64,000 bases of DNA from Thermoplasmata archaeon (GTDB taxonomy: Archaea; Thermoplasmatota; Thermoplasmata; Lutacidiplasmatales; UBA184), in NCBI GenBank assembly GCA_035502455.1, contig DATJUI010000019.1, positions 13,378-77,377 of the forward strand. Reading direction: 5' to 3'. Below the pieces are notes generated by a model. The model saw nothing but the letters and a program-made list of their open reading frames with translations. It was not told the DNA's origin and searched no databases. Numbering within the stretch: position 1 is the stretch's first letter; each line of letters begins with the position of its first letter. Of the stretch, positions 1-56,206 are shown in pieces. The translations under genes were made by a program, and so were the position numbers.

Positions 1-957
1 TTGCCTGTCCGATCTGCTTCGACTTCTTCTGGTAAAACCGCTTGACCGCCGTCTCCTGGCGGGCGAGCTGCATCCCCATCACGGCGTTGCAGAGGAACCG
101 CTTCAGCACCAGGTCCCCGGGCTTCACCCGACGGTGCCAGCTCACATGGTCCCCGGAATTGTCGGCGCGGGGCACCAGCCCCGCGTACGAGGCGAGCTCG
201 CGCTTCGTGGGGAACCGTCGAATGTCGCCGATCTCGGCGACCAGCGCCACCGCGGTGTAGTAGTCGACCCCGGGGATCGTCATCAGCAGACGGACGTCCT
301 CGCGCTCCACTGCGAGCTGGGCGAGCTCGCGCTGGAGATCGTTCTCCTGGCTCGCGAGGTAGCTCAACTGGCGGAGCGAGCGGGCGAGGACCGCCCGCTC
401 CTCCGCGCCCAGCGGAAGGGCGGTCAGCGTGCGCAGCCCCTTCACGGCGAACCAGTCGGTGACCCCCCGCATCTCGCCGTCGAGCAGGTTCCGCGTGACC
501 AGCGCGTGGACCTGATTCTTGACGAGCGCCGCCTTCCGCCCGAGGTCCTGGCGCTCGCGCACCACCGAGCGCATCCGATCGATCTCGGGTGGGGGCACGT
601 AGCACTCCGGGAGGAACCCGGCTTGGAAGAGGTGCGCCAAGATCTCACTGTCCCGTTGGTCGATCTTCACCGAGCTCTTCGCGATGAGCCCGACGTCCCT
701 CGGCGAGGCCATGTGGAGCTGCCACCCCTCCTCCTTCAGCAGGTGGGCGACGGCCTTGCCCGCCGTGCTCGCCTCGAGCACGATCGGGACCGACGCATCG
801 ACCTCCGCTCGGAGCGCGACGAGCGCGCCCCGGGTGGTCGAGAAGGTCCACGCTCTCTTCGGCTTTCCGTCCGGGCTCAGATACGTTGCGGTCGTGGTCG
901 ACTTGTGGACATCGAGCCCGAGACATGGGCTCGGAGTCCATTCTCTCTCCTCGTTCA
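1..957 (-). mobile_element. IS110-family transposase, partial; C-terminus runs off window start, likely GTG start near 957
   Basis: Minus-strand translation gives ...CLGLDVHKSTTTATYLSPDGK... (N-terminal DEDD domain) and ...TIPGVDYYTAVALVAEIGDIRRFPTKRELASYAGLVPRADNSGD... (Transposase_20 helix-hairpin-helix motif), both hallmarks of IS110/IS1111 transposases. This frame is not in the supplied ORF track; read directly from sequence. Confidence 0.75.
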
Positions 958-1270
958 CCTTCGTCTTCCCTCCGTTGGGTCGTGGAACTCGGGCACGGGT
1001 CTCGACAACCTCCCGTACGTGCACACGGTCTTCGTGGACCGGGGCACAGATGGACCCGTCGTGAGGGCGGCCACACTTCCTAGCGCACTCGACGTGCAAA
1101 GGGGTTGACGGCCGCCCGGGCCCGAGCTCACGTGGGCCCCCAGGCGTAGCAGCGGGATGAACCCGCTTTCAGGTCCACTTCCTCGTCCCGGAGGCGACCC
1201 CTCCGGGGCCCGTTCGTTCGTTCCCTCGCCGGGCCGGGGGGAGAAATAGCGGGACGGACTGTCGATTCCC

Positions 1271-18832: not shown

Positions 18833-19537
18833 GTGTGGGCGAGCCGCGGCCGGCCGCACCGGACGGGCCGGGCTCGAACTAAAGTCCTCGACCCATCTTT
18901 GCGCACCGTGCGGATCATCGAAGTGTTCCACTCCGTGCAGGGGGAGGGTCCGCTCTCGGGGGTCCGCACGACGTTCGTGCGCACGGCGCGGTGCAACCTG
19001 CGCTGCCGCTGGTGCGATACGACGTATTCGTTCGGGCCGGGTCGGGAGCGGTCGCTCGCGTCGATCGAGCGGACGATCGCCCGGAACCGGACGCGCCACG
19101 TCTGCCTCACGGGCGGCGAGCCGCTCCTCCAGCGCGAGTCGCTCGCGCTCGTGCGCCGTCTCGCCCGCAAGGGGCTCTCCACCGTGATCGAGACCGGCGG
19201 CTCGCTCGACGTACGGCCGTACCTCGACGTGCCGAACGTGATCCTGAGCGTGGACGTGAAGTGCCCCGCGTCCGGGATGGAACGACGGAACCGCTGGGCG
19301 AACCTCCCGTTGCTCCGGGCCCAGGACGTGCTCAAGTTCGTCATCCAGGACCGTCCCGACTACCTGTACGCGCGCCGGGTCGTGCGGGGGTATCGGGGAC
19401 CGGCGCAGATCGTCTTTCAGCCGGTCTGGGGGACCGACGCCGGCCGCCTCGCGGACTGGGTGCTCGCGGATCGCCTCGACGTCCGCGTGATGCTGCAGGA
19501 GCACAAGCTCCTCTGGGGCGACGTCCGCGGCCGGTAG
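18833..19537 (+). CDS. queE: 7-carboxy-7-deazaguanine synthase (radical SAM); true start may be GTG near 18908
   Basis: IEVFHSVQGEGPLSGVRTTFVRTARCNLRCRWCDT matches QueE N-terminal motifs; called start leaves only 24 nt to divergent leuS. Confidence 0.8.
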   Translation: MWASRGRPHRTGRARTKVLDPSLRTVRIIEVFHSVQGEGPLSGVRTTFVRTARCNLRCRWCDTTYSFGPGRERSLASIERTIARNRTRHVCLTGGEPLLQRESLALVRRLARKGLSTVIETGGSLDVRPYLDVPNVILSVDVKCPASGMERRNRWANLPLLRAQDVLKFVIQDRPDYLYARRVVRGYRGPAQIVFQPVWGTDAGRLADWVLADRLDVRVMLQEHKLLWGDVRGR

Positions 19538-20713: not shown

Positions 20714-21142
20714 ATGGCGGAGATCACCCTGCTCGCGATCGGCGAGGCGCGCGAAGGGTTCGAGTTCGTCTACCAGGGCGGCGCGCCGGTCTGCCGGACC
20801 TGCCCGTACCGGCACGCCTGCCTCACGCTCGACGCCGGCCGGCGCTACGCCGTCACCAAGGTCCGGCCGATCACGCACCCGTGCGCGTTGCAGGAGAGCG
20901 ACGCCCACGTCGTCGAGGTCCGTCCGGTCCCCCGGCCCCTCGTCCTCGACGCGCGGACCGCGATCGTCGGGAGCCAGGTCGAGGTCGCCCGCTACCCCTG
21001 CCGCCGCCTCGACTGCCCGAACTGGTCGATCTGCGCCGGCCCCTCGGTCCCGACGCGGCAGCGGTTTCGGATCGAGTCGATCGGCGACGGGACGGCCGAG
21101 TGCCGGATCGGCCGAACGTTGAAGCGCGTGGAGGCCGTCTAG
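20714..21142 (+). CDS. UPF0179-family archaeal protein
   Basis: 142 aa with conserved Cys pairs (CRTCPYRHAC ... CRRLDCPNWSIC) typical of the archaea-specific UPF0179 family; starts 2 nt after egsA stop. Confidence 0.55.
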   Translation: MAEITLLAIGEAREGFEFVYQGGAPVCRTCPYRHACLTLDAGRRYAVTKVRPITHPCALQESDAHVVEVRPVPRPLVLDARTAIVGSQVEVARYPCRRLDCPNWSICAGPSVPTRQRFRIESIGDGTAECRIGRTLKRVEAV

Positions 21143-21152
21143 CCCGCCATGC

Positions 21153-21261
21153 GGGGCTGTGGGGTAGCTTCGGGCGCGAGGAACGCGCCTCGGCCCGCTC
21201 TACTGGTCCATCCTTCGGGCTTTGGGAGCCCGGGACCCCGATTCAAATTCGGGCAGCCCCA
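21153..21261 (+). tRNA. tRNA-Pro (anticodon TGG) with putative about 34-nt intron in the D-loop
   Basis: 7-bp acceptor stem ggggctg/cagcccc; T-arm cccga-ttcaaat-tcggg; anticodon arm cgggc-tTtGGga-gcccg (anticodon 21223-21225); A14/G15 present; gene is 109 nt, so it needs an intron after about position 16. Confidence 0.6.
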
Positions 21262-42259: not shown

Positions 42260-44122
42260 CTACCCTCCCCCGGCCTGCGACGCGATCGCGGCCCGGAGCA
42301 CGCGGGCGACCTCCTGGCCGTCCCGCCGGCCGCGGACCTCCTTCATGACGTCCCCCATGAGCGGCGCGAAGGCAGCGGCGCCGCGCGCCCGGACGAGCGG
42401 AAGGTTCCGCTCCACGACCCGGGCGACGAGCGCCGCGAGCTCGTCGGCGGAGAGGCCCGCGAGACCGCTGCGGGCGAGCGCGGCCTCCAGCGTCGGCGCG
42501 CCGGCGGCGAGCGCGGCGAGGACGGTCGGGATCCCCTCCTTCGCGAACCGTCCGGCCTCGGCCGCCGCGAGCAGGGCGTCGAGCGCGTCTTCCGACGGGT
42601 CGAACTGGACGACCCCCTCCGGAAGGACGAGGCCGGGGAGATCCTGAGTGAGCAGGCGGGCGACCAGCGTCGGCGACCGCCCCCGGTGCGCCAGCGCCTC
42701 GAACAGCTCGAGCCGATCGGACGACTGGAGCTGGCGGACGAGCTCGGGCGCGAGGCGGTAGGTGGCGGCGACCCGCGCCCGCTGCGTCGCGGGGCGCTCG
42801 GGGAGGGATCGGGCGAGCCGGGCGAGCCGTTCGGCCTCGACCACGAGGGGGGGGATGTCAGTCTCCGGGTACATCCGGTCGCGCCCCGGCAGCGGGCGGG
42901 AGTAGCGGCTCCGGCCGTCCGGCAGCGGGTCGCGGGTCTCGCCGGGGATGCCGAGCCGGGCCGCGTCCGCCCGGCGCGCCACGCGGGCGATCGCGCGGCG
43001 GGCCCGCGTCGCATCGACATCGGTGAGCAGCACGAACCCGTCGCCGGGCCCGAGGCCGAGGTCGGCCCGGACCCCGGCCACGCGGGCGCCGTCGATCCCG
43101 TACGCCGGAAGCTCGTCGGAATGCACGAGACCCCGCAGCCCGAGGACCCGCACCTGCTCCGCGAGCTCCCGCCCGAGCCGCTCCTCGCTCCCGGGCGGCG
43201 AACGCAATAGGTCCGCGAACCCCCGCAGGCGCAGGGCGAGGACCCGCCCCGGGCCCCGGCCCCGCGCCCCGAGGGGGCCCGAGTCGAGATCGGCGAACCG
43301 CGCAGTGAGGTCGACCGGGTCGTCGGCCACCGGCGGGGCCCCGCGTCGCGCGAGCTCGTCGCGGACGGCGAGCAGGATCCGCTGCCGCTCGGCCTCGCCC
43401 TCCACGTACTGCTGGATCCGGTTGAGCTCCTGGACGCCCTTGAGCTCGATCCGGTGCCCGCCCTCGATCGAGACGTTGAGGTCCTCGCGGATCGTCCCCA
43501 GGCCCCGCTTCACGCGATGCGTGGCGCGGAGGAGCGCCCCCAGCTCCTCGGCGACCGCCCGGGCCTCGGGCCCCGTCGTGATCTCGGGACCGGTGGCAAT
43601 CTCGACGAGCGGGATGCCGAGCCGATCGAGGCGGTAGACGACCTCCGTCTCGGACCCGCCGGACCTCCGCGCGGCGTCCTCCTCGAGGCAGATCGACAGG
43701 ACCGAGTAGCGCCGGCCGTCGACCTCGAGGTGGCCGTCGACCGCGACGAGCGCGGTCCGCTGGAACCCGGCCGTGTTCGAACCGTCGACGACGATCTTGC
43801 GCATCACCTCGATCTCGTCGACCGGTCGGGCGTCGAGGAGGAGCGCGAGGGTGAGCGCGACGTCGAGCGCGTCGTGGTTGATCGGATGCGGCGGCTCCTC
43901 GTCCAGGTCGACGAGGCAGTCGGACGGCCCGGACTCGTACCGGTAGACGAGACCGCGCGACGCCTGGAACGCCGCGGCCGGGTCGACCGCGAGATTCTCG
44001 CCGCTCGCCGCGCGCAGCCGACGGACGAACGACCGATCGACCTCGTCGGTGAGCTCGCTCGGACAGGCGCAGAACAGCTTGCCGGTCGCCAGCTGCTGGT
44101 GGACCTCGAGGCCGGCCTTCAC
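42260..44122 (-). CDS. gatE: Glu-tRNA(Gln) amidotransferase subunit E
   Basis: GTG start VKAGLEVHQQLATGKLFCACPSE... inside a 1048-aa artefact ORF; GatE-specific insertion and C-terminal GatB/YqeY-like domain. Confidence 0.9.
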   Translation of the reverse strand: MKAGLEVHQQLATGKLFCACPSELTDEVDRSFVRRLRAASGENLAVDPAAAFQASRGLVYRYESGPSDCLVDLDEEPPHPINHDALDVALTLALLLDARPVDEIEVMRKIVVDGSNTAGFQRTALVAVDGHLEVDGRRYSVLSICLEEDAARRSGGSETEVVYRLDRLGIPLVEIATGPEITTGPEARAVAEELGALLRATHRVKRGLGTIREDLNVSIEGGHRIELKGVQELNRIQQYVEGEAERQRILLAVRDELARRGAPPVADDPVDLTARFADLDSGPLGARGRGPGRVLALRLRGFADLLRSPPGSEERLGRELAEQVRVLGLRGLVHSDELPAYGIDGARVAGVRADLGLGPGDGFVLLTDVDATRARRAIARVARRADAARLGIPGETRDPLPDGRSRYSRPLPGRDRMYPETDIPPLVVEAERLARLARSLPERPATQRARVAATYRLAPELVRQLQSSDRLELFEALAHRGRSPTLVARLLTQDLPGLVLPEGVVQFDPSEDALDALLAAAEAGRFAKEGIPTVLAALAAGAPTLEAALARSGLAGLSADELAALVARVVERNLPLVRARGAAAFAPLMGDVMKEVRGRRDGQEVARVLRAAIASQAGGG

Positions 44123-45432
44123 GGCGCGGCCTCGGGCGCGTGCCGGTCGTGGAACTCGCCCGCCCGGTCGGTCCGTAGCAGCTCCTCGACCCGCTTCGGG
44201 TCCGCCGCGTGGCCGAGCGCCCAGCACAGCTTGGCGTAGGCCGTCTCGGGGAGGAGATCGCCGAGGTACAAGACCCCCGAGCGCAGCAGCTCGCGGCCGG
44301 TCGCGTAGACGTACGGGTCCGCGTTCCCGGCGAGGCACTGGGTCGTCATGGCGACGACCATCCCGCGGGCGGTCGCCGACCGGATCCAGGTGAGATGGTT
44401 CGAGCCGACGTGGCCGAGTCCCGTGCCCGCGAGCACGATCCCGCGCAGACCGCGCGAGAACGCTTCCGCGCGGTCCGCGGTGAGCCCGGGATAGAACCAG
44501 AGCAGGCCGGCGCGGGCATCGAGCGGTCCGTCCAGGCGCGCCGGGCCGGCGGCGGGCGGCCGCACCGGCTGCTCCCACCGGATCGAGCCGTCGACCACGT
44601 AGCCCAGCGGGGGCCCGTTGCGGCTCTGGAACGCATCGCGACGGCTCGAGTGCATCTTCCGCACCCAGGTCGCGCGGTGGATCGCGAGCCGGTCGTCGGA
44701 CGGCCCCGCGTGCATGACGACCACCACCTCGCCGCACCCGCGCTCGCGCGCGACCGCGACCGCCCCACCGAGGTTCGTGGCCCCGTCGGACGACGGCCGA
44801 TCGGGCGACCGCTGGGCCCCCGCCACCACGACCGGTCCGGGGAGGTCGACGAGCAGGAAGCTGAGGGCGGCGGCGGTGAAGCCGAGGGTGTCGGTGCCGT
44901 GCGCGATCACGACGCCGCGGGCCCCCGCCCCGAACGCCTCGACGACCTTCGAGGCGATCGCGACCCAATCCTCGGGGGCCAGGTCCTCGCTGAGCCGATC
45001 GAAGACGGGGACGATGCGGACCGGACCGTCGCGCTCGAGATCGGGGAAGAACGCGAGGATCCCCGACTCGTCCTTCACGGGTCGCACGCCACCGGTCTCG
45101 TAGTCGACCCGCGAGGCGATCGTGCCCCCGGTCGTCAGCAGCGCGACCGGCGCCCCCCCGACGGGGGATGACGGTCGGTCCGACGTCCCGGCGGACCGCC
45201 CCTCGTCGGCGGGACCGTCCTCCATCAGGCGGAAGCCGAACGAGGGTCCGATCCGGATCCCCACGTTGTAGCCGCTCTCCAGCTTGAGCGGCAGGATCCG
45301 ATCGCCCGACAGCTCGTGCCGGGGCACGATGGTCCCCGTCCACGTGCGGGCCCCGTCCGTGATCTCGACCCGACGGCCCATCGGCAGGGAGCGCAGGGCG
45401 TCCCACGGGTCCTTCGGTTCCGCTCCCGACAT
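44119..45432 (-). CDS. gatD: Glu-tRNA(Gln) amidotransferase subunit D (asparaginase-like)
   Basis: 437 aa; LLTTGGTIAS asparaginase threonine motif; 4-nt overlap with gatE. Confidence 0.9.
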   Translation of the reverse strand: MSGAEPKDPWDALRSLPMGRRVEITDGARTWTGTIVPRHELSGDRILPLKLESGYNVGIRIGPSFGFRLMEDGPADEGRSAGTSDRPSSPVGGAPVALLTTGGTIASRVDYETGGVRPVKDESGILAFFPDLERDGPVRIVPVFDRLSEDLAPEDWVAIASKVVEAFGAGARGVVIAHGTDTLGFTAAALSFLLVDLPGPVVVAGAQRSPDRPSSDGATNLGGAVAVARERGCGEVVVVMHAGPSDDRLAIHRATWVRKMHSSRRDAFQSRNGPPLGYVVDGSIRWEQPVRPPAAGPARLDGPLDARAGLLWFYPGLTADRAEAFSRGLRGIVLAGTGLGHVGSNHLTWIRSATARGMVVAMTTQCLAGNADPYVYATGRELLRSGVLYLGDLLPETAYAKLCWALGHAADPKRVEELLRTDRAGEFHDRHAPEAAP

Positions 45433-45555
45433 CGATCCGTTCCGGCGCGCCGTCGGACCCGGGAGCGGGTACGGCTAATAAGCGTCCACGACCGCTCGGT
45501 CCGGCCGGCCCCGGTCTTTTATACCGGACCCTCCTCGGCGCGCCGGGAACGCGCG

Positions 45556-45663
45556 AAGATCCGGATGCCCGTGTGGGGTAGCTTCGAGGTCGGGGTCGTC
45601 CCCCGCCTCGCTGCAGTGGATTATCCTAGAGGCCTGCGGAGCCTCAGACCTGGGTTCGAATCC
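45556..45663 (+). tRNA. tRNA-Arg (anticodon GCG) with putative about 33-nt intron in the D-loop
   Basis: 7-bp acceptor gcccgtg/cacgggc; T-arm ctggg-ttcgaat-cccag; anticodon arm gaggc-cTGCGga-gcctc (U33; anticodon 45625-45627); A14/G15; extra about 33 nt after position about 16, same place as in tRNA-Pro. Confidence 0.65.
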
Positions 45664-45795
45664 CAGCACGGGCGAGTTCCTCTCCCCAGCCGAGAGGCTT
45701 GGGGTCGGGGCGGTGCCTCGGCCCCGTTCGGAAGTGACCGAAGTTCCCCTAACGGTCCTACCCGAGCCTCACCATAGAACCGTCGGTCGAAGACC
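45645..45795 (+). repeat. repeat copy 1: tRNA-Arg 3' end plus about 130 nt of downstream flank (attL-like)
   Basis: Diverged homologue at 49404-49555; 15-nt exact core atcccagcacgggcg repeated at 47183-47197. Confidence 0.55.
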
Positions 45796-45801
45796 AAACT
45801 G

Positions 45802-46278
45802 CTACTTTCGGGCCCGGCCACCGGGACCGGGGCGCCTGTGCGTCCCTCGTCCACGAGGAGGTGGCCGTCTTGAGGATGTGGGCTCTCTTCCGAGACGTAT
45901 CCAGATTCCGTCGGGATCCTTGACCATCGCTGCCCATCCCCCAGTGGATTCCGGGGTGAACCGCGTGGCTCTACCTCCGTTTCGCAGGAGTTTCCGGTAC
46001 GCTCTATCGAGAGTGTAAGCCGGAGACGCACCGAGCGAGACGTCGATGTGATCCAGCTCGTCTCCCTTGCGGTACTTGGACGAGAACATGGAGCTTCGGG
46101 GATACCAGTTGAGTTCGAGGAGACGACGCGAGGTGGGATCCTGGAGGAGAGCGGTCACTCCGCCCCCCCAGCTACGACAATCATCCCTCCGGATCACGCG
46201 AAGTCCTAGTGCTCTCGTGTAGAACCTCACCGAACGCGGGAGATTCCCCACACGAATGCCGACACACTCGAGCCGCAT
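45802..46278 (-). CDS. VOC-family (glyoxalase/bleomycin-resistance fold) protein
   Basis: MRLECVGIRVGNLPRSVRFYTRALGL ... DPDGIWIRL beta-alpha-beta-beta-beta signature; C-terminal 30 aa probably read-through into the repeat. Confidence 0.6.
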   Translation of the reverse strand: MRLECVGIRVGNLPRSVRFYTRALGLRVIRRDDCRSWGGGVTALLQDPTSRRLLELNWYPRSSMFSSKYRKGDELDHIDVSLGASPAYTLDRAYRKLLRNGGRATRFTPESTGGWAAMVKDPDGIWIRLGREPTSSRRPPPRGRGTHRRPGPGGRARK

Positions 46279-46481
46279 CCTGAAGCATAGCGATCGAGGC
46301 TACTTAGGACCGAACCCAGTAGTTTCGACGCGCCCCCAGAGGTGCCGACCGAGACGCTAGATGGGTCCGCTGCGTACGGCCCCCAGCGAACTTTTCGCTG
46401 AGGGATTCGAACAAACGGCGATTCGACCACTAGCACGGGTGCTCTCCGAGCCGGCTCGATGAGCTATGTTCCCGACACGAC

Positions 46482-46508
46482 TATATTGATGTAGTGTATT
46501 GATGTGTA
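46482..46508 (+). promoter_or_regulatory. putative vapBC promoter/operator: two attgatgt direct repeats plus ctatatt TATA-like element
   Basis: attgatgt at 46485-46492 and 46498-46505, 5-15 nt upstream of vapB; RHH antitoxins typically autoregulate via repeats like this. Confidence 0.35.
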
Positions 46509-46511
46509 ACT

Positions 46512-46757
46512 GTGTCCGCAAAGACGGTGGCGTTGGACCCGGAGGCCTATGATATGCTGCGGCGCCAACGGCGAAGCGGCGAGACCTTTAGCGATGCGGT
46601 CAAGCGCCTTTCCGGCAAGCGCCGGTCGATCCTGGACTTTGCCGGGATATGGAAGGACATCCCCGACGAAGACCTCGAGAGGCTCCGCTCCTTCCTCGCA
46701 GAAGGACGGCGTCGGGACCGCGCGCGAATCGAGCGCCTGTTCCAGAAGGGGGGCTGA
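46512..46757 (+). CDS. vapB: type II antitoxin VapB (ribbon-helix-helix/COG4423-like)
   Basis: 81 aa; precedes the PIN gene with a 3-nt gap. Confidence 0.65.
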   Translation: MSAKTVALDPEAYDMLRRQRRSGETFSDAVKRLSGKRRSILDFAGIWKDIPDEDLERLRSFLAEGRRRDRARIERLFQKGG

Positions 46758-46760
46758 ACG

Positions 46761-47147
46761 GTGCGCTGCTTCGATTCAACTTTCCTTATCGATTACGTCC
46801 GGGGCGACGCGGACGCGGTCGGGAAAGTGAGAGAGCTCGTGGAGTTGGGTGAACGTCTCACGACCCCGTCCGCGGCTGCGGCCGAGGTCCTCGTCGGAGC
46901 TCACTTCCGGGGGCGGGGAGAACTCTCGCGAACTCTGGAATTCCTCGACCGCCTAGAGATCCTTCCCTTCGACATCGCCGAGGCAACCGAAGCCGGCAGG
47001 ATCGGTGCCGAGGCGCTTCGGCGGGGCGCCCCCATAGCGGGCAACGACCTGTTGGTCGCAGCGACCGCGCGACATCGCGGAGGGATACTCGTGAGCCGGG
47101 ACGGAGTCTTCTCGCAAGTGCCGGGCCTGGCGGTGGAAACGTACTGA
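46761..47147 (+). CDS. vapC: type II toxin VapC (PIN-domain ribonuclease)
   Basis: 128 aa; acidic PIN residues at conserved positions (CFDSTFLIDY ... AEV ... GNDLLVAATA ... SRDG). Confidence 0.8.
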   Translation: MRCFDSTFLIDYVRGDADAVGKVRELVELGERLTTPSAAAAEVLVGAHFRGRGELSRTLEFLDRLEILPFDIAEATEAGRIGAEALRRGAPIAGNDLLVAATARHRGGILVSRDGVFSQVPGLAVETY

Positions 47148-47182
47148 CGGATGGAGGGGATTCGTTACGGGGGCCGTAACGG

Positions 47183-47197
47183 ATCCCAGCACGGGCG
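47183..47197 (+). repeat. repeat copy 2: 15-nt exact match to the tRNA-Arg 3' end (atcccagcacgggcg) with about 45 nt of degenerate flank
   Basis: Identical to 45648-45662; follows vapC by 36 nt. Confidence 0.5.
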
Positions 47198-47486
47198 CCT
47201 TCCTCGGACCCGTGAGGAGCGGCGTGAGATTCGAGCACGATGAGACTCGGGCCCCCCCCGCGTCCAAGTGCGGGGTCTCGGCTGCTGGAGTCGAGGTGCC
47301 GTCGAGGTCGCCCGCTGACCCATGTGGGTGAGACGAACGTCTCGAAGTGCTCCCGATGAAGGTTCGCACCCGTGCAGCCTTGCCTCCTCCGCGGGACGTT
47401 ACCCCCGGTTTCAGATTCTGGGGAACCGCGGGTCAAGGAGGTCGAATGGCAGCCATTCAGCGAATCCGCTCGTCTTGCGGCGGGGG

Positions 47487-48320
47487 CTAGGTCTTCGGCT
47501 GGGCTCGCCCGACTGCGAAGGGACAAGCGAATCCCCAAATGATGATGACTACTAATGATCCCAGAATAAGAGGGAAGACGAATCTCGGTATCGAGTTCCC
47601 CGTAAAGATCCAAGCTGTCGCGGCTCCGCCGATAAAGCCTACGGTTCCTCCAATAAACCCTACGATCGCCATCCAATTTGGAAATACGCGGCTGTTCCAG
47701 AAGGCGACACTGAAGAGCGACACGCCCAAACCGAGGGCCGAGAAACCGAGGACCTCCCAACCATCCGTGATGTTGTACCAAAGCGCGGCCTCGTACGCAG
47801 CCGTCGCCGATGACGGAGCCGTGGTCGTCGATATGGCGTTGAGCGCGCTGTAGCTCGCGGCATTCGACACGGCCAACACGAATGCGCCGAAGAGGAACAC
47901 GAGCATGGAGGCCCATACCAGACCTCGACTTTGGGACTTGAGCGCCCCGCCGAGATACGTCGCGAAGGGCGTAACTCCCAAGGCGAAGACCAGGACCCAC
48001 AAATCGCTGAATGCGGTCGCGGCCTTGTTCGAATTGAACACGGCAAGCTGGTTCGACGGTGTCGAAGGTTCGGGTATGGTGACGAGTCCGGCGATGGTGA
48101 TTGCCGAGATCAGACCCGCCAAGATGGCGGCGATGAGAAAACCAGTCGGTCGGCCGGCGTCCGTGGGTATCGAGGTGTTTTCGGTTTCCGGAGGCTCGGG
48201 CAACATCGCGGCGACCGGGTTCTGAGGGATAAACGTTCCGAAGTCGCAAACCCTCTCTTTCGCCGAGCGGGGCGAGGAGTCGGGACCCGCCAGCGCCTGT
48301 CCGCCCAACGCCGGTCTCAA
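47487..48320 (-). CDS. hypothetical polytopic membrane protein (start possibly the internal Met at 48206)
   Basis: About 6 predicted TM helices; about 55-58 % GC, lower than the genome background. Confidence 0.55.
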   Translation of the reverse strand: MRPALGGQALAGPDSSPRSAKERVCDFGTFIPQNPVAAMLPEPPETENTSIPTDAGRPTGFLIAAILAGLISAITIAGLVTIPEPSTPSNQLAVFNSNKAATAFSDLWVLVFALGVTPFATYLGGALKSQSRGLVWASMLVFLFGAFVLAVSNAASYSALNAISTTTAPSSATAAYEAALWYNITDGWEVLGFSALGLGVSLFSVAFWNSRVFPNWMAIVGFIGGTVGFIGGAATAWIFTGNSIPRFVFPLILGSLVVIIIWGFACPFAVGRAQPKT

Positions 48321-48672
48321 GATCTCGGGCGGCCGGCCCGCTGCGCGGCGTCCGTGTCCGAGGCGCTTGTGCTCGGTCCTGAGCCCCTCGACTCGACCCG
48401 GGATTGAGGGAGGTGTCGATCACAAATCCACAAGTGAGGTCATGGACCGGTTCCACGACCTCACGGCGGGTACGTGCTCCCGCGTCCCGAGCGGGCGCGG
48501 TGGAGTCGAATACGTAGCTGCTCGAATCCCAGTAGGGGCGCCTACCCTATCTCTGCCCGCGAGCGTGGACACGAAGGTAGAGAGACCTACGACACCTCGC
48601 GCCCCCACGGACTCGCACGGGGAGTCGCGCGTCGCCGGGAGTTGGGATGTCGCACCCCGGCTCCAAGACCGG

Positions 48673-49290
48673 TCAGGCGGGCTTCTTGGCGATGACAAAA
48701 TCCATCGCATGGCGGTGGGGAACGCCACTCGAGTTGCAATCGAACTCTACCTCCCCCGAGTCCAGGATCTGCCAGTCCCCGTAGTACCCGAGCAGCTCGC
48801 CGGGGCGATAGGGGTGCTCCGCGGGATCCATTTCGGGCGGAGGATCGAGATAGGGCTTGGGAACAAAGGCGTTCACCGCATGAATGCCTCCCCGAACGGT
48901 GTGGGCTTGGAAGTGAGCAAAACGGGCCGGTCGGGCGCCCCGCGGGAGATTGTTGAGGACCCCGGAACTGAAGACCACATCGAATCGACGGCTCAGTTGG
49001 TACGATCGGATGTCGCCGATGCGAAAGCGCACCGCTAGACCGAGACGAGCGGCCCTTCGCTCCCCCTTGACCAGCCCGACGCGAGAGACGTCGACGCCAA
49101 GAACTCGAAACCCGTGACGGGCGAAGTGAATCGAATCTCGCCCCTCACCCGAGCCGAGATCGAGCAGCGTCGGCGACTTCGCCGGAAGGGTCCGGGCGAC
49201 TCGAACGACCTCGCGTGCCAGTCCGGTCGGCCTCGTCCCCCAGTACCAGCCCGGCCGTGAGTACCGCTGGTCGTAACTCGGTTCCCGCAT
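48673..49290 (-). CDS. class I SAM-dependent methyltransferase (TehB/thiopurine-MTase-like)
   Basis: LLDLGSGEGRDSIHFARHGFRVLGVDVS motif I plus post-I acidic residue; WYWG N-terminal motif. Confidence 0.75.
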   Translation of the reverse strand: MREPSYDQRYSRPGWYWGTRPTGLAREVVRVARTLPAKSPTLLDLGSGEGRDSIHFARHGFRVLGVDVSRVGLVKGERRAARLGLAVRFRIGDIRSYQLSRRFDVVFSSGVLNNLPRGARPARFAHFQAHTVRGGIHAVNAFVPKPYLDPPPEMDPAEHPYRPGELLGYYGDWQILDSGEVEFDCNSSGVPHRHAMDFVIAKKPA

Positions 49291-49403
49291 CGGTTACGTT
49301 CGCCCCCGACGGGCTATGTGTCGCGAGACTTGGGATTAGGCTATCTTGGGACTCACGACTCGTCGTCGCGGCCCGGGGGAGCGGCTCAGGACGGGGATTC
49401 TAG

Positions 49404-49555
49404 CCATCGGCGGCCGAATCGCAGCACGGGCGAGTTTCTCCCTCCACCCGAGAGGTTCGGGATCGGGTCGCTGCGCCTGTCCCGCTCGGAAGGGATCGAT
49501 GCCTCCCGCACAGTCCCACCCGGACCTCCGCATAGAGCCGTCGGGGAAAGCCCGA
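49404..49555 (+). repeat. repeat copy 3: tRNA-Arg T-loop/acceptor 3' fragment plus about 130 nt of flank, about 75 % identical to copy 1
   Basis: cgaatcGcagcacgggcgagtt (one mismatch to tRNA) then co-linear similarity to 45663-45795. Confidence 0.55.
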
Positions 49556-49664
49556 ACCGGCCTCCCCGGGCATGGGGAGTCGGATCGACGATCCGTGCCA
49601 CGCGGTGACGGCCGCCGTCCCTCGCCGCATTGGCCTCCACCCGGACGGGGGTCCGCACGCGCGT

Positions 49665-50723
49665 TCAATGCTTCGCGTAGTACTCCGCCACCGCGCGGAA
49701 CGACTCATTGGGCTCCCAGGGCATGTCGGGGTAGGTCGCCCCATGACCCCGTTCCAGGTAGCGAGCGAGGCTCGGGGAGGCCGTGTCCACGTCGAACCGT
49801 GGCTCCTCGTCGTAGGGCGTAATCTGCGATTGAAAGGTGCTAACGAAGCCGCCCAAGACGCCGGCTCGCTCGATCCGGTCCAATTGGGCGACCAGCTTCT
49901 GGGCCTGGGACTTTTCGTCTCGGACGAGGGGTGTCTTCAGCCGGGGGCGCACGAATCGGCCGATGAGGGGGAGTTGATGCAGGAGCTGAGAGCGGACATC
50001 GATCGGCGAGGGTTTGAGACCCGCGGAGTCCAGGAACCCATCGGCGCCCGGACCGTCGTCCGCCGTGGAGAATCCGAACTCCGTGATGACGACCGGCTTG
50101 CCCGTGGCGATGGCCGGACGGAGCATCTCGGTCCAGCGGTCCGCGATGCGGGCGGTAAGGTAGTGGTCCACCCCGACGAAGTCGAAAGCAGACCAGTCGA
50201 CTCCCTCCCAGACGAGCGACGCGTAGGTGAGTCGTCCGCGATACTCGCGTTGGACGGCCTTCACGAGTCGGGTGAGTAGCTCGTTCAGCGGGCGATTGTG
50301 CCGCCCACTCTTCACGGTGGGAAAGAACTGCGGGCTCCGGACCCGGGCTCTCATGGTCCGGCCGGGAATGACTCCCTCGTTGAACAGCGTGGCTTCCATC
50401 GCTACGCCGAGCACCACCCGGTCCGGAGCCTCCTTGCGAAGCGGCTCGAGCGCCCTGGCCGCCCGGATCAGGTAGCTCGCTGAGGTCTGGGGGCTACGGT
50501 CCCAGCACTGGGGAAAGATCCAGGTCTCGAGCCCTTCCGCGAGGGCCGCCCTGCCCGCGATCACCAGTCGTGCGGGATCCTTGCCGACGATTCGCACCGC
50601 GGTACAGTGCAGGTCGCGCCGGATGATCCCGAGCTCGTGGCGGACGTTCTCCGCCCGGAAATCCGGTCGCCAGTTCATCCCGTAGACGACGCCGGCGTCG
50701 TAGCAGACACCCTTCAGCTTCAC
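49665..50723 (-). CDS. TIM-barrel glycoside hydrolase-like protein (GH-A clan-like, ITEFG nucleophile motif)
   Basis: 352 aa; VVITEFGFS resembles the clan GH-A catalytic nucleophile strand; family not assignable by eye. Confidence 0.55.
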   Translation of the reverse strand: MKLKGVCYDAGVVYGMNWRPDFRAENVRHELGIIRRDLHCTAVRIVGKDPARLVIAGRAALAEGLETWIFPQCWDRSPQTSASYLIRAARALEPLRKEAPDRVVLGVAMEATLFNEGVIPGRTMRARVRSPQFFPTVKSGRHNRPLNELLTRLVKAVQREYRGRLTYASLVWEGVDWSAFDFVGVDHYLTARIADRWTEMLRPAIATGKPVVITEFGFSTADDGPGADGFLDSAGLKPSPIDVRSQLLHQLPLIGRFVRPRLKTPLVRDEKSQAQKLVAQLDRIERAGVLGGFVSTFQSQITPYDEEPRFDVDTASPSLARYLERGHGATYPDMPWEPNESFRAVAEYYAKH

Positions 50724-50918
50724 GCGCGCGGCGCTCCGTCGACCCGGCGCTCCCGTAAATCATCGTCGCGGAGTTGGACGCGGGCGCCGGTGGAGACGAT
50801 CGGACTCGAACTGAGTCGTCCGGCCGAAACGCGCCGATCGAGAGTCTCGGTCGGACCCCCGTACGGGTGCGTGGAAACTACGGAACCCGAGCTCGGCGGG
50901 ACGTTCGACCCACTGGGG

Positions 50919-51653
50919 CTACGTGGGGTCCTTGAGCCCGAGCAGCAACCCCCGGCCCGGAGTTAGGCCTCGCCGCAGGAAGCGGGCGGTCAGTCCGGCC
51001 TCCTCCATGAGTCGCACCAGCCGGCTTCGGGGTACGAGGAGGCCGATGTCCACCTCCTCGAGATGCTCCACGCGGCGCCCCGTTCTTCCGATGAGGTAGT
51101 GATAGTGGACCGCCGAGCGTCCCCCCCGCCGCGAAGAGAACGCCATGCGGGCGACCGTGACCGAGGGGCTCGTCCGAGTCAGCAGGTGAACGTACCCCGA
51201 GCGGAAGTCCGAGGGATCGATCCACGGCTCCACGATGACGACGCCGCCCGGCTGCAGGTGACGGGCGAAGTTCGAGAACGTCGCGGCGAGCTCCCGTTCG
51301 GTCTTGAGGTGACCGATCGCACTGTAGAGGCAGCTTACCACGTCAAAAGTCTCGTCGAGACGAAAGCTCCGCATGTCCCCGGGAATCAGCCGGACCCGGG
51401 GCAGACGACGCCGCGCCACCCGGAGCATCTCGCGACTCACGTCAACGCCCGTGACCGTGTAGTCACGCCGGAGGAAGCTCAGATGTCGTCCAGTACCGCA
51501 CGCCACATCCAGCCACGCCCGTCCTCGAGAACGGCCGAACTGGCGAGCGAGCGATTCGAGAACGCGGGCTTCCGAACGGTAGTCCTTCCCTCCCACCAGA
51601 TCGTCGTAGTAGAGCGCCAGTCGATGGAACATGAGGGGCTTGACTCGGGCCAT
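50919..51653 (-). CDS. TylM1/DesVI-family dTDP-aminosugar N,N-dimethyltransferase-like methyltransferase
   Basis: Co-linear similarity to TylM1 along the whole length: LALYYDDL, WLDVACGTGRHLSFL (vs LLDVACGTGMHLRHL), GDMRSFRLDETFDVVSCLYSAIGHL (vs GDMRDFSLGRRFSAVTCMFSSIGHL), GGVVIVEPWIDPSDFRSGYV (vs DGVVVVEPWWFPENFTPGYV), HYHYL (vs HYLV). Confidence 0.8.
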   Translation of the reverse strand: MARVKPLMFHRLALYYDDLVGGKDYRSEARVLESLARQFGRSRGRAWLDVACGTGRHLSFLRRDYTVTGVDVSREMLRVARRRLPRVRLIPGDMRSFRLDETFDVVSCLYSAIGHLKTERELAATFSNFARHLQPGGVVIVEPWIDPSDFRSGYVHLLTRTSPSVTVARMAFSSRRGGRSAVHYHYLIGRTGRRVEHLEEVDIGLLVPRSRLVRLMEEAGLTARFLRRGLTPGRGLLLGLKDPT

Positions 51654-52123
51654 ATCGAGCTCCCTCGACCGCTTCGGGCCCCTACGTGAACCCCTGGGTC
51701 ATGAATAAGAACGGGGTGCCACCGACGACCGGCTGGCTTCCCAACCTGGGAGTGCCGCCGTCCCGCCGGCTCTACCCGCATGCCGGATCGGATCCGGCCG
51801 AGATCGTGGGCCGGATGCCGGCTCTCGCCGTGCGCCCTCCTCTCGAGAGCGCGCTCGAGAGGCGGAGGGAGCTCGATCGTCGACCGGGGGGCGGGGACGC
51901 TCGACCTCGGACCCGCCGCACGCGTCTCTCATTCACCCATCGATCCCTCGTCAGGACCTCACGGGCGCCGGCCGCGATCGAACTCCGCTTCCGGAAGCTT
52001 CCCCCAATTTCTCGTCGATGCGGCGATGCTACGTTGCAAGTACGCGGTGGGCCACGGGGACGAGCCCTACGCGCCCGGTCCTGCCGAGGTCGAGGGGGTC
52101 CGGTCACGGGGGGGCGCTGCCCA

Positions 52124-52615
52124 TCAGGAGTTCAGGGCGGTGTCCCTGCGACGGGGGGTCGGAGCGTCGTCACCCCTTCCCGCTTGCGAAGTCCGTTCGT
52201 CCAAGCGCTTGAGGAGGTCCCGGAGCTGGAGGAGGTCTTGGGTCTCCCAGCCATCGAAAACCCCCTGGTGGTGGGCCAGCCGCTTGTGGACATGACTGTG
52301 GACGTGCAAGCCAACGCGAGTCGTCTGCACACGTACAAGACGGCGGTCCTCCCGGTCGCGGTGGCGACGTACGAGGTGGTCGCGCTCCATCTGGTCAATG
52401 ATCCCGGTCACGTGAGCCGGGCTGACGCCCAGAAACTGGGCGAGTTCACTCTGGGTGATCCCGCCGGGGGTCTGAGCGGCGTGGAGGGTCAGGTGGTGCA
52501 ACATCGGGAGCTGGGAGTGCAAGTGCGGACCGAACCGGGGGACCGCCCGGCGGAACACCCGACGGAGCAATCCCAGCGTCTCCTCGATCAGCTCGTCCCG
52601 ATCCGACTCGATCAT
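52124..52615 (-). CDS. MarR-family transcriptional regulator
   Basis: 163 aa winged HTH (ITQSELAQFLGVSPAHVTGIIDQMERDHLVRRHRDREDRRLVRVQTT). Confidence 0.8.
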   Translation of the reverse strand: MIESDRDELIEETLGLLRRVFRRAVPRFGPHLHSQLPMLHHLTLHAAQTPGGITQSELAQFLGVSPAHVTGIIDQMERDHLVRRHRDREDRRLVRVQTTRVGLHVHSHVHKRLAHHQGVFDGWETQDLLQLRDLLKRLDERTSQAGRGDDAPTPRRRDTALNS

Positions 52616-52660
52616 CCCGTCGTTCCCTCATCGCCCCGAAGGGCATAGAACCTTCGCCTC

Positions 52661-52705
52661 CAAATCATTCAATCAAAAATGTTTTAATACTGAATGAATA
52701 TAGAG
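52661..52705. promoter_or_regulatory. AT-rich divergent promoter/operator between marR and the ABC exporter; inverted repeat cattca...tgaatg and TATA-like aatatag
   Basis: Sequence tcattcaatcaaaaatgttttaatactgaatgaatatag; the ABC ATPase ATG is about 10 nt downstream. Confidence 0.4.
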
Positions 52706-52710
52706 GACGC

Positions 52711-53802
52711 ATGGCCGCAGCCGCCCGCCCTGCGAGCACCGTCCCCCGTGTCACCTACGGACCGTCCCGTTCCGACGCGATGATCGAGGTCCAGGATCTC
52801 GTCAAGGTCTACGGCGGCGGTCGCGGCCCGACCGCCGAGCCCGAGGTCCGAGCGGTCGACGGCATCAGCTTCTCGGTCTCCGAGGGAGAGTTCTTCGGGT
52901 TCCTCGGCCCGAACGGTTCGGGCAAGACCACGACGATGAAGATTCTCACGACCCTGCTCGGCCGGACGAGCGGACGGGTTCGGGTCGCGGGCTTCGACAT
53001 CGACCACGATGGGGCCCGGATGCGGAAGCAGATCGGCTACACCGGGCAGTCGATCGGGGTGGACGGGGATCTCACCGGCCGGGAGAACCTCATGCTGATG
53101 GGCCGACTGTACCACTTGCCCGGTCCTCTGGTCCGGGACCGAGTGGAAGACCTGCTCCGGCTCTTGCAGCTAACCGAAGCGGCCGATCGTCCCGCGTTCA
53201 CGTACTCGGGAGGGATGCGACGCCGGCTCGACCTCGGCTCGGCGCTCGTCCACCGGCCGAAGCTCCTGTTCCTTGATGAACCGACCACCGGATTGGACCC
53301 TCAGACCCGCAACGCCCTGTGGGAGTACCTCCGAGAGCTCCACGTCCGGGACGGGGTCACGATCTTCCTCACGACGCAGTACATGGAGGAGGCCGACCGG
53401 CTCTGCGAGCGCGTCGCGATCATCGACCACGGCCGTATCGTCGCGCAGGGAACGCCGGCGCAGCTCAAAGCCGAAATCGGGGCGGACAGCGTCACGATTC
53501 GCCTCCCGCTCGACGAGCGGCTCGAGGCGCGGAGACGGGAGGCGCTCGAGCTCGTCCGAACGGTCCCGGAAGTGGTCGGCGCTGCGCCCTTTGAGTTCGG
53601 GGTGACCGTCCAGGCCCGAAACGGAGGGGCGGCTCTCGTCGAGATCCTGCGGCGCCTCGAGTCGGGTCATGTCCCGGTGAAGGAAGTGGCGGTCTCGCCC
53701 CCGACCCTCGACCAGGTCTTCCTCCAGCACACGGGTCGCGAGATGCGCGCGGAGGAAGTGAGGCCGATGACCCGCATGGCCCGCCGCGGGATGGGACGGT
53801 AG
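52711..53802 (+). CDS. ABC transporter ATP-binding protein, DrrA-like (ABC-2 exporter ATPase)
   Basis: Walker A GPNGSGKTT, signature YSGGMRRRL, Walker B LLFLDEPTTGLD; DrrA-type C-terminal extension. Confidence 0.85.
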   Translation: MAAAARPASTVPRVTYGPSRSDAMIEVQDLVKVYGGGRGPTAEPEVRAVDGISFSVSEGEFFGFLGPNGSGKTTTMKILTTLLGRTSGRVRVAGFDIDHDGARMRKQIGYTGQSIGVDGDLTGRENLMLMGRLYHLPGPLVRDRVEDLLRLLQLTEAADRPAFTYSGGMRRRLDLGSALVHRPKLLFLDEPTTGLDPQTRNALWEYLRELHVRDGVTIFLTTQYMEEADRLCERVAIIDHGRIVAQGTPAQLKAEIGADSVTIRLPLDERLEARRREALELVRTVPEVVGAAPFEFGVTVQARNGGAALVEILRRLESGHVPVKEVAVSPPTLDQVFLQHTGREMRAEEVRPMTRMARRGMGR

Positions 53803-53803
53803 C

Positions 53804-54670
53804 ATGGCGACAGGGACCGGCCACCGCTACGAGCTCCCCGAGCTCTCGGTACCCTCGCCCGGATTCGGCTCCTTCTTCTCGGATATCGCGTGGGTCTGCT
53901 ACCGGAGTTTGAGGAAGCTCTCCCGCAACCCACTTCTCCTGATGTTCACGTTGATCATGCCGCTCATCTGGCTCGGGATGTTCAGCCAGACCTTCGGAAC
54001 GGTGTTCTCGAGGGCGGAGAGCGCCCCCGGTACCGCTCCCCTGCCGTACGACTACATCGCGGTTCTCTTGCCCGGGATTGCCATCATGACCGCGATCCAG
54101 GCGGCGTCACAGTCCGGGTTTGTGATGGTCTCGGACATCGAAACGGGCTTCATGGACAAGTTCTTCGTCGCTCCGATTCGCCGCAGTTCGGTCCTGGTCG
54201 GAAAGCTCCTCGGCGACGCCATCCGGATGGCGGGACAGGCGATCATCGTGCTCGGGATCGCCTACGTCTTCACGCTCGCCTTCGGCTGGAAGATCCCATT
54301 CGCGACGGGCATCCTGGGGGGCCTCCTGATCGTCCTGCTCGCCGCGCTCTTCGGGGTCGCGTTCTCGGGCCTGTCGAACTCGGTCGCGCTGTTCACGAAG
54401 AACACCGAGACGACGATGATGGTGGCGTTCACGCTCACCTTCCCGCTGCTCTTCCTCTCGACGGCGATGGTACCGCTCAGTCTCCTTCCGGGGTGGGTCC
54501 AGACGTTCTCGATGTTCAACCCGGTGAGCTACGTCGCCACCGCCTCGCGCGCGATGATCCTCACGGGCTTCAACTGGCCCGAGGTCGGCCAAGCGTTCGC
54601 AGCGATCGCGATTGTCGGAGTGCTGCTCAACGCGCTCGCGGTGTACGCGTTCCGGCGACAGGGCCGCTAG
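53804..54670 (+). CDS. ABC-2 family transporter permease (DrrB-like)
   Basis: 288 aa, 6 TM helices; starts 2 nt after the ATPase stop. Confidence 0.8.
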   Translation: MATGTGHRYELPELSVPSPGFGSFFSDIAWVCYRSLRKLSRNPLLLMFTLIMPLIWLGMFSQTFGTVFSRAESAPGTAPLPYDYIAVLLPGIAIMTAIQAASQSGFVMVSDIETGFMDKFFVAPIRRSSVLVGKLLGDAIRMAGQAIIVLGIAYVFTLAFGWKIPFATGILGGLLIVLLAALFGVAFSGLSNSVALFTKNTETTMMVAFTLTFPLLFLSTAMVPLSLLPGWVQTFSMFNPVSYVATASRAMILTGFNWPEVGQAFAAIAIVGVLLNALAVYAFRRQGR

Positions 54671-54677
54671 GGTGGAG

Positions 54678-55091
54678 ATGTCGACCGATCCGGAGCTCAC
54701 GCCCGGGGGAGGTCCCATCCAGCGCGGGACCGAGGCACCGTCCGACGAGCTCCCGGTGGGCTCGCGGAACGCGCCGAAGGCGCGCCGAGCCGCTCGCGAC
54801 CCGAAGCGACCGGGCGAACGATGCCGTGCGGCCCCGGGTCACTGGATCCCGGTCGTTGATCGGGCCCAGTGCGAGGGCAAAGCCGAATGCGTCGACGTTT
54901 GTCCGTACGCGGTCTTCCAGATCGGAACCCTCACGGACGAAGAGTATCGATCGCTGAGCTACCTGGGACGGGCCCGGGCGCGCCACCACCAGTTCCAGAC
55001 CTCTCGCACGCCCCGTGCCGCGGAGTGTCGGGCATGCGGGCTCTGCGTGGTCGCGTGCCCCGAGGATGCGCTGAAGCTGATCCGAAGCTGA
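54678..55091 (+). CDS. 4Fe-4S ferredoxin-domain protein with disordered N-terminus
   Basis: Two cluster-binding cysteine motifs, CEGKAECVDVCP and CRACGLCVVACP. Confidence 0.6.
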   Translation: MSTDPELTPGGGPIQRGTEAPSDELPVGSRNAPKARRAARDPKRPGERCRAAPGHWIPVVDRAQCEGKAECVDVCPYAVFQIGTLTDEEYRSLSYLGRARARHHQFQTSRTPRAAECRACGLCVVACPEDALKLIRS

Positions 55092-55408
55092 CGCGGGCGG
55101 GGTCCGACGCGAAGGGAACCCTCCTCCGGTTCGGCCAGCTCTACGGGCCGGGGACCTACTCTGAGTCAAGGCAACCGGCCCCCCCGCGGATCCACGTAGA
55201 CTCGGCGGCGCGTCGAACGTATGCGGCGCTGGGATCACCCCCGGGAGTCGTCACACTCGTGGACGAGTGAGCCACGACCGAGCGGGACCTCCAGCCGTTG
55301 AGACGGGGGTCGGCCCTTCGGTCATCGCCCGTCGGTTCCTTTCCCTGCTGGACCGGCGAGAAGGGCGGCGGAGTTCGGTCGCGCCCCGAAACCGGTCCGT
55401 CGGCGCCG

Positions 55409-55786: not shown

Positions 55787-56206
55787 CGGGTTCCGAGGCC
55801 CGTTAGCGCTTATGAGAGCTTTCGCGCCCGGCCGGGCGCCCGCTCGGGCCGGTCAACGGCCGGAGCCACTCTCGGTCCCACCCCGGGCCGACCGGACACG
55901 ACGGCCCGCTGAGGCCCACCGCGGCGTGCCTCGACTCCCGCGATCCCGGAGCCCCGGGCCGGCGGCCGCGCGGGGGGCGTTTACCCCTTCGGAGGCCCCA
56001 GTTCCGGGTCGTGGAACCGCGGGGCGAGACGGGGCTGCCGGCGCGTAGGAGAGCCCGGCCGCGATGTTCCGGCTCGACGGCCCGGGCGCACCGGGCTTAT
56101 GGGGCGCGAGCGGATGTGGACGGAGGAGCCATGGCCGCCTTCTCCCGCCCGCCCCGCCTGCTTCGCACGGCGCGGCGGGTGGCCGAAGGGCTCCGGGGGG
56201 GCCGCG

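Follow-up and report, generated by a model that had tools for sequence, protein, structure and literature searches.

We analyzed a 64-kb stretch of DNA (hereafter the window) whose G+C content is 72-77%, with ~67% between 44 and 56 kb. Soil-metagenome contigs in ENA match the window, and it contains the archaeal markers sn-glycerol-1-phosphate dehydrogenase, GatD, Spt5/L11 and archaeal-type LeuRS. Its UPF0179 protein is identical to HTT73846.1 ("MAG TPA: Thermoplasmata archaeon"), and a homologue with 77% identity bears the label Ca. Lutacidiplasmatales. The window contains genes for tRNA-Pro(TGG) and tRNA-Arg(GCG), and both of these tRNA genes (2/2) carry an insert in the D-loop (Table 1). 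Neither default ARAGORN nor Rfam at the gathering score called any tRNA in the whole 64-kb window, and with permissive E-values Rfam gave nothing but chance matches over the tRNA-Pro gene.

Both genes have a perfect 7-bp acceptor stem and 5-bp anticodon and T stems, share the 5' segment U8-G9-GGGU-AGCU, and have the insert in the alpha part of the D-loop, between A14 and G18. A previous sequence-only reading had described two tRNAs, Pro-TGG and Arg-GCG, each with an insert at the same D-loop position. Inspection of the sequence bore this out and yielded complete tRNAs of 109 and 108 nt, respectively; the coordinates given at that time for tRNA-Arg (45556-45663) were 11 nt too low and should be 45567-45674. 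The anticodon loops, UUUGGGA in tRNA-Pro and CUGCGGA in tRNA-Arg, are uninterrupted, and the variable regions, GGAC and AGAC, respectively, are 4 nt long. [quoted passage not shown]

When the inserts were deleted at the boundaries initially proposed, ARAGORN called Pro-TGG (75 nt) and Arg-GCG (76 nt), i.e., removal of the insert restored the cloverleaf in both genes. The intron option of this program (-i) gave solutions with a 43-45-nt intron and a 64-67-nt tRNA, which were discarded as artefacts of a forced anticodon-loop intron and a truncated tRNA; calls of Thr-GGT, Gly and Asn for the tRNA-Pro orthologues were due to the same forcing. No further tRNAs of any kind were found in the window and ~2 Mb of related loci, nor did these loci yield a third tRNA with this intron.

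Table 1. Features of the two intron-containing tRNA genes. Positions are those of the window; splice sites and intron boundaries are predicted.
Feature	Position	Strand	Basis
tRNA-Pro(TGG) gene, 109 nt with intron, no encoded CCA	21153..21261	+	sequence reading; ARAGORN after removal of the insert
Pro exon 1, tRNA positions 1-17, ending A14 G15 C16 U17	21153..21169	+	boundary inferred from the bulge rule and from invariant U17 versus variable position 18
34-nt Pro intron (pre-tRNA positions 18-51), made up of bulge base, hairpin and CUCUAC	21170..21203	+	variable region; boundaries uncertain by ~1 nt
Hairpin h' of the Pro intron, two 5-bp stems with a 1-nt bulge between them and a 6-nt loop	21171..21197	+	covariation
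Pro exon 2, starting U-G18-G19-UCCA	21204..21261	+	invariant save compensatory anticodon-stem changes
TTTTATA, possible archaeal TATA box ~45 nt upstream of tRNA-Arg	45517..45523	+	sequence reading
tRNA-Arg(GCG) gene, 108 nt with intron, no encoded CCA	45567..45674	+	sequence reading; ARAGORN after removal of the insert
Arg exon 1, positions 1-17	45567..45583	+	invariant in 65 distinct sequences
Helix H 5' strand, exon G12 U13 A14 G15	45578..45581	+	pairs with 45611-45614 in 65/65
3-nt bulge C16 U17 / U18 with predicted 5' splice site, cut after 45583	45582..45584	+	geometry search
Arg intron, 33 nt, positions 18-50	45584..45616	+	variable region
Hairpin h' of the Arg intron, two 5-bp stems with a 1-nt bulge between them and a 5-nt loop	45585..45610	+	covariation; hairpin also predicted by RNAalifold
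Helix H 3' strand, intron C45 U46 G47 C48	45611..45614	+	100% paired with exon positions 15-12
A49 G50 / U51, predicted 3' splice site, cut after 45616, outer helix absent	45615..45617	+	A49 and U51 invariant; position 50 any base
Arg exon 2	45617..45674	+	invariant save single changes at four positions, including columns U56, A64 and G92

In the region 20714-21153 of the window, tRNA-Pro starts 10 nt past the stop codon of the UPF0179 gene, and this order is kept in 80 of the 80 readable species loci. No TATA-like box is visible between the two genes, and tRNA-Pro may be co-transcribed with the UPF0179 gene or driven by a promoter inside it. We used the UPF0179 protein to fetch the corresponding loci of relatives, which gave 80 loci from different GTDB species, all of them "Thermoplasmata archaeon" MAGs (UPF0179 protein 73-85% identical, locus GC 0.63-0.75). 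Because these loci were picked by a neighboring protein, the sampling was blind to the intron. Every one of the 80 loci with a readable tRNA region had the insert at the same place, with a length of 33-36 nt. In an alignment of 79 distinct sequences, the window's own included, the only exon differences were compensatory G-C/A-U exchanges in the anticodon stem and two changes at C16 (exon 1), and the insert was variable at most positions. It nevertheless forms a conserved hairpin: 7 of its 10 pairs showed compensatory changes on both sides, 94% of the cells were paired, and the covariation score was reached by none of 500 column shuffles and by no slid register. A separate peculiarity of this tRNA is the last pair of the T stem, which is A53-U61 in all 79 relatives versus the near-universal G53-C61 (T arm, window 21237-21253).

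For tRNA-Arg, a metagenome collection was scanned with a DNA pattern of the shared junctions, from which Pro(TGG) was excluded through its unusual A53. The scan gave at least 120 loci, which comprised at least 73 tRNA-Arg(GCG) genes with a 31-35-nt insert at the same place, one foreign tRNA-Pro(GGG) and 46 chance matches; since the pattern demanded the intron, the Arg set is unable to show intron-less relatives. Among the matches listed, 65 distinct Arg sequences had near-invariant exons, part of this invariance being by construction as the pattern fixed the AGCU, TGG and T-loop columns, and 7 of the 10 hairpin pairs again showed compensatory changes. Viral contigs scanned for intron-less or intron-bearing copies yielded nothing, or chance matches only. 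A 15-nt segment of the Arg hairpin in the window, TCGAGGTCGGGGTCG, has an exact copy at 58427-58441, which is GC-rich, has no tRNA features around it and is probably a chance occurrence at such base composition.

The presence of the same insert at the same place in all readable Pro loci and in at least 73 Arg contigs excludes chance as its source. These data also bear on the possibility that the genes are inactivated copies, such as pseudogenes hit by a small mobile insertion, or assembly artefacts. Default tRNA finders do reject both genes, and tRNA-Arg adjoins what appears to be an integrated mini-element (see below). However, the same structure occurs in more than 140 independent assemblies, strict purifying selection acts on the exons, in which changes of the anticodon stem are compensatory, and no other Pro or Arg tRNA was found in the window and related loci. 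We therefore consider inactivation or artefact extremely unlikely. The proposal of the sequence-only reading that the inserts form a lineage-specific family held in part: they are lineage-wide and conserved, but the same site and junction motif also occur in the tRNA-Pro(GGG) on a contig of an unrelated organism with a contig GC of 35%, so the site is not unique to the lineage. This gene (contig Ga0180301_10075996; positions 649-729 of the retrieved locus, minus strand) has a 32-nt intron at the same D-loop site, with a perfect central helix CUAG/CUAG and the junctions AGCU/UCGG...CGCUAGAA/UGG. Its position 12 is C and the intron partner of this position is G, which represents true covariation across families.

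As in the A. fulgidus complex and in the canonical 37/38 geometry, archaeal splicing endonuclease cuts after the second base of each bulge. The substrate of archaeal splicing endonucleases consists of two 3-nt bulges with a 4-bp helix between them (PMC5829648, PMC6379350). A register search in tRNA-Arg found helix H, which on the 5' strand is separated from the hairpin by precisely three unpaired bases (C16 U17 W18). All 65 Arg sequences form helix H, and in them position 47 is only G or A (opposite U13) and position 48 is only C or U (opposite G12). Thus, a 4-bp helix H, a 3-nt bulge and an intron helix are all found in tRNA-Arg, and three of the four H pairs are found in tRNA-Pro. Position 18 of tRNA-Arg is A in 64 of the 65 sequences and U only in the window genome; all four bases occur at position 50, and A49 and U51 never change. 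When the Pro and Arg sets are viewed together, U17 and the U before G18 are invariant and the flanking positions 18 and 50/51 are variable.

In an exhaustive register search for the strict hBHBh' motif, neither gene had a tRNA-yielding site at which an outer helix h of 2 bp or more could be drawn. G11 faces G52 in tRNA-Arg and G53 in tRNA-Pro, leaving the 3' site unclosed, and the motif is therefore of the relaxed HBh' type: H, one proper bulge and h' are present, and the 3' site consists of A-N/U followed by unpaired D-loop bases. Hence, of the bulge-helix-bulge folding suggested for the junctions by the sequence-only reading, the relaxed form was recovered and the strict form was found in neither gene.

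Application of the bulge rule to helix H would place the Arg cuts after U17 and before U51, yielding a mature tRNA of 75 nt. The predicted Pro cuts, after U17 and before U52, are in the same register and would also yield a 75-nt tRNA. The spliced junctions predicted in this manner are GGGGUAGCU-UGGUCCAUCC and GGGGUAGCU-UGGAUUAUCC, with the junction strings GGGGTAGCTTGGTCCATCC (Pro) and GGGGTAGCTTGGATTATCC (Arg). When the ARAGORN threshold was varied, the 75-nt products were detected up to -ps117/120 and those of the register one base further up to 102/105, and the Arg product initially proposed was intermediate. The insert had been suggested to start after C16 (16/17). Its placement in the D-loop is correct, but the site is most likely 17/17a, one base further 3'; in addition, the Arg intron as then delimited was one base out of register with the Pro intron. 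The TTCG at the 5' end of both inserts, which had been viewed as an intron signature, consists of exon base U17, the variable bulge base and the bases C-G with which the hairpin opens, and most relatives have U/ACG instead. The features that the two tRNAs do have in common are the U8-U17 flank, the junction motifs U/WCG and GCU-NN-A-N/UGG, and the hairpin of ~10 bp.

Taken together, tRNA-Pro(TGG) and tRNA-Arg(GCG) are probably functional tRNA genes, each with a short, protein-spliced archaeal BHB-type intron of the HBh' form in the D-loop, at 17/17a. In the precursor, G12 U13 A14 G15, from the D-stem's 5' strand and the first D-loop bases, would leave their tRNA partners and pair with the four intron bases located right after the intron hairpin, thereby generating the 4-bp central helix H. 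Beyond H, the 5' side would present a 3-nt bulge, C16 U17 / A-or-U18, and then the ~10-bp hairpin h', and the 3' side would present A-N / U with the outer helix absent. Cleavage by splicing endonuclease would occur just 3' of the second bulge base of either strand, and RtcB, the archaeal RNA ligase, would then ligate the two exons. The expected products are 75-nt tRNAs with an 11-nt D-loop AGCUUGG...: AGCUUGGUCCA (Pro) and AGCUUGGAUUA (Arg).

Several observations do not fit this scheme well. In the splice register, 79 of 79 Pro sequences have the mismatched U x C at 13:48 of the helix, and three have lost its A14:U47 pair. A competing Pro helix, G11-G15/C48-U52, has five perfect and invariant pairs. 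For tRNA-Arg, RNAalifold prefers a long exon-exon helix with a 6-nt bulge around the hairpin; we set this fold aside because it leaves 47 and 48 unpaired despite variation that always keeps their pairing with U13 and G12. It is conceivable, then, that the introns are real and that the cuts are made at sites other than 17/52 (Pro) and 17/51 (Arg): at 16/17; after position 18, which would give 77-nt tRNAs with 13-nt D-loops; or, in tRNA-Pro only, as dictated by the helix G12-G15/C48-Y51, in which case the 3' cut would fall after G53 and the product would be 73 nt long. The junction strings under these alternatives would be AGCCTGG, AGCTWNTGG and AGCTGTCC. A shift by one base is made plausible by C16, which can pair with the hairpin-closing G to form an equally good 4-bp H one base over, and the Pro product of the 16/17 site, AGCCUGGUCCA, scores equal to AGCUUGGUCCA in ARAGORN. 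However, the 16/17 site misfits the 4-bp/3-nt geometry relative to the hairpin, the register after position 18 has 13-nt D-loops and the lowest ARAGORN scores, and with either of them the hypervariable Arg position 50 would enter an otherwise invariant tRNA. The competing Pro helix, besides being perfect and invariant, is favored by position 51, which stays C or U, both pairing with G12; its use by the enzyme would nevertheless remove one of the invariant G18/G19 at the 3' cut, and is therefore deemed unlikely. Overall, it is rather unlikely that one of these other pairs of sites is the one used.

A more radical possibility is that the insert is kept and that the mature tRNAs have an extra helical D-loop arm, which would be a new tRNA architecture. 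Covariation in the hairpin is also expected of a structural arm, positions 16-17 are solvent-facing in the tRNA fold, and the EndA of the lineage is of the "narrow" type (see below). The four bases after the hairpin argue against this explanation. Only bases able to pair with positions 12-13 of the D-stem and with A14-G15 occur there; such pairing is impossible with a folded D-stem and is a need of a splicing motif, not of an arm. Furthermore, the sequences of loop and stem are free to evolve, an arm at the elbow would probably get in the way of contacts with RNase P and the ribosome, and we know of no natural precedent for a retained D-loop arm. We regard a retained arm as very improbable, and removal by splicing at 17/17a as the preferred explanation. 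A content of K-turn or C/D-box guide type was also considered for the intron and rejected, as the intron is too short and the G-A motif is not conserved.

A radical-SAM QueE-like gene (7-carboxy-7-deazaguanine synthase of the preQ0/archaeosine pathway) is located at 18833-19537, 1.6 kb upstream of tRNA-Pro; this proximity may be a coincidence. As helix H of the proposed precursor engages G15, the site of archaeosine, this base would have to be modified after splicing. That a D-loop intron is strictly retained beside this site raises the question of whether the intron orders the modification steps.

The next question is which enzyme would remove such introns. EndA is absent from the window and from all tRNA loci, as judged by tblastn and Pfam searches. 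We built a profile of solved EndA catalytic units, which led to Methanomassiliicoccales proteins, and a second profile then led to 1,786 relatives. The best among these 1,786 include a dense family of 350-aa proteins, whose identity is 72-94% to a GC-rich seed (over the segment matched) and ~50% to the EndA of Methanomassiliicoccales. Where labels are given, they are mostly Thermoplasmata archaeon, with a few older ones reading Euryarchaeota or Methanobacteriota archaeon. The EndA loci, with 66-69% GC, belong to the soil-MAG and ERZ2725xxxx data series from which the window also comes. The family is abundant in soil Thermoplasmata assemblies of this kind, and we infer that it supplies the enzyme of the window genome, a match made at the level of the group and from other assemblies.

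The chain contains the Pfam domains tRNA_int_endo_N and tRNA_int_endo twice, in the order N-C-N-C, and aligns end to end with the A. fulgidus alpha' and the fused M. kandleri enzymes. The C-terminal unit has the residues Y, H and K in FRAY / HHAKY / GVKK, and the N-terminal unit has no His aligned with the catalytic His. These features correspond to the alpha'2 type of Cluster II Euryarchaeota, an assignment that for the N-terminal unit is based on the position of the catalytic His. In the alignment of the 350-aa family, neither the 11-residue CSL/L1 insertion of Sulfolobales-type alpha subunits nor the ARMAN-type insertion before the catalytic His is present. The EndA of the group is therefore not of either broad-specificity form, (alpha-beta)2 with CSL/L1 or epsilon2 with ASL. 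The sequence-only reading had predicted a matching endonuclease specificity; this found no support, as the EndA recovered is an ordinary two-unit alpha' enzyme without the CSL insertion.

Two features of the EndA entries and loci may be mentioned here. One entry of the clade (P0136, 254 aa) lacks, relative to P0254 (351 aa), ~97 residues, from the last part of unit 1 through the N-domain of unit 2, and may be a gene-model artefact or a deletion variant. In the 15 loci that extend upstream, EndA lies just downstream of, and opposite to, a PDDEXK_19/HTH_3 gene; a HAD hydrolase gene follows EndA in all but one short locus, and then a DUF1028 gene wherever the locus is long enough.

Cluster II Euryarchaeota have been assigned only alpha'2 enzymes, and those of Thermoplasma and Archaeoglobus are classed as narrow (PMC5829648, PMC6379350, PMC3241643). 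In particular, the A. fulgidus alpha'2 enzyme shows hardly any cleavage of a D-loop intron (PMC3241643, PMC6379350). Intron type and enzyme type thus appear mismatched in this group. It has also been reported that the Archaeoglobus enzyme is able to cut a bulge-helix-loop at 37/38 when this is part of a full-length precursor (reviewed in one of PMC5829648, PMC6379350 and PMC3241643), which makes a mode assisted by the tRNA body a plausible way out of the mismatch. Whether the high-GC soil Thermoplasmata clade, which is near Lutacidiplasmatales and Methanomassiliicoccales, routinely splices HBh' D-loop introns with a loop-less alpha'2-type EndA is in our view an evenly balanced matter. If it does, broad or tRNA-body-assisted recognition arose by a route other than CSL or ASL insertions, and the pairing of the alpha'2 enzyme with strict, canonical introns only would fail for an order-level group. 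As the published link is between relaxed non-canonical introns and endonucleases with a specificity loop, a lineage with an apparently plain alpha' enzyme provides a direct test case.

D-loop introns, including one of the HBh' type, are established in archaea, e.g., in A. pernix tRNA-Thr and at 20b/21 in M. kandleri tRNA-Glu (PMC3241643, PMC5829648). [quoted passage not shown] However, the M. kandleri intron is at 20b/21, on the other side of G18/G19, versus 17/17a here, and it occurs in a single tRNA of one species, which also has a canonical intron, whereas the present intron occurs in two tRNAs, across ~80 sampled species for Pro and at least 73 metagenome contigs for Arg. The enzymes differ as well: that of M. 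kandleri is an (alpha-beta)2 heterotetramer and the candidate described here is a fused two-unit alpha' protein. The crenarchaeal D-loop intron (PMC3241643) has a similar placement and is removed in vitro by EndA alone, showing that location in the D-loop does not in itself preclude splicing by EndA; unlike the introns described here, it has a motif described as a canonical BHB and a host with a broad (alpha-beta)2 EndA containing CSL, and it is this intron that the A. fulgidus alpha'2 enzyme hardly cut. ARMAN-2 (Ca. Micrarchaeum; PMC3239211) is also a non-TACK archaeon having non-canonical tRNA introns with relaxed motifs, but its EndA is a three-unit epsilon2 enzyme with ASL, an insertion not seen in the enzyme found here.

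In the "intron transposition" of Thermoproteales (Fujishima et al. 2010, as summarized in PMC4090602), different isoacceptor tRNAs also have introns of similar architecture. According to this summary, those introns are close in sequence and occupy many positions, whereas here a single position in two tRNAs is documented. The sequence similarity between the Pro and Arg introns is weak beyond the constrained junctions, and a common origin may only be conjectured.

In the papers searched, we found no mention of tRNA introns in Lutacidiplasmatales or Thermoplasmata MAGs. What is new is the host lineage, a clade of soil Thermoplasmata that is abundant, high in GC and uncultured, together with the retention of the intron in two tRNAs across the Pro species and the many Arg metagenome contigs sampled, and the apparent mismatch of intron type with enzyme type. 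The finding also reveals an annotation blind spot, in that the only two tRNA genes of a 64-kb window were missed by default ARAGORN and by Rfam at the gathering score. The tRNA complements, and genome quality calls based on tRNA counts, will be understated for this abundant soil group unless archaeal intron-aware tools are used.

The region downstream of tRNA-Arg has features of its own. The last 15 nt of the gene (ATCCCAGCACGGGCG, 45660-45674) are repeated exactly at 47183-47197, 1.5 kb downstream, and the two repeats bracket a VapB antitoxin / VapC PIN toxin pair (genes 46503-46757 and 46758-47147). This looks like a small element integrated in the 3' end of tRNA-Arg, with att-like direct repeats. 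Directly downstream of tRNA-Arg (~44000-56000), the G+C content drops from ~0.75 to 0.67, and GC at third codon positions is lower too. The segment encodes a DUF4386 protein, a methyltransferase, a MarR regulator and an ABC-2 transporter pair, and may constitute an island acquired by horizontal transfer beside the tRNA gene. Finally, an IS110-family transposase gene (DEDD_Tnp_IS110 and Transposase_20 domains) is located at the edge of the window (5-1168, minus strand).
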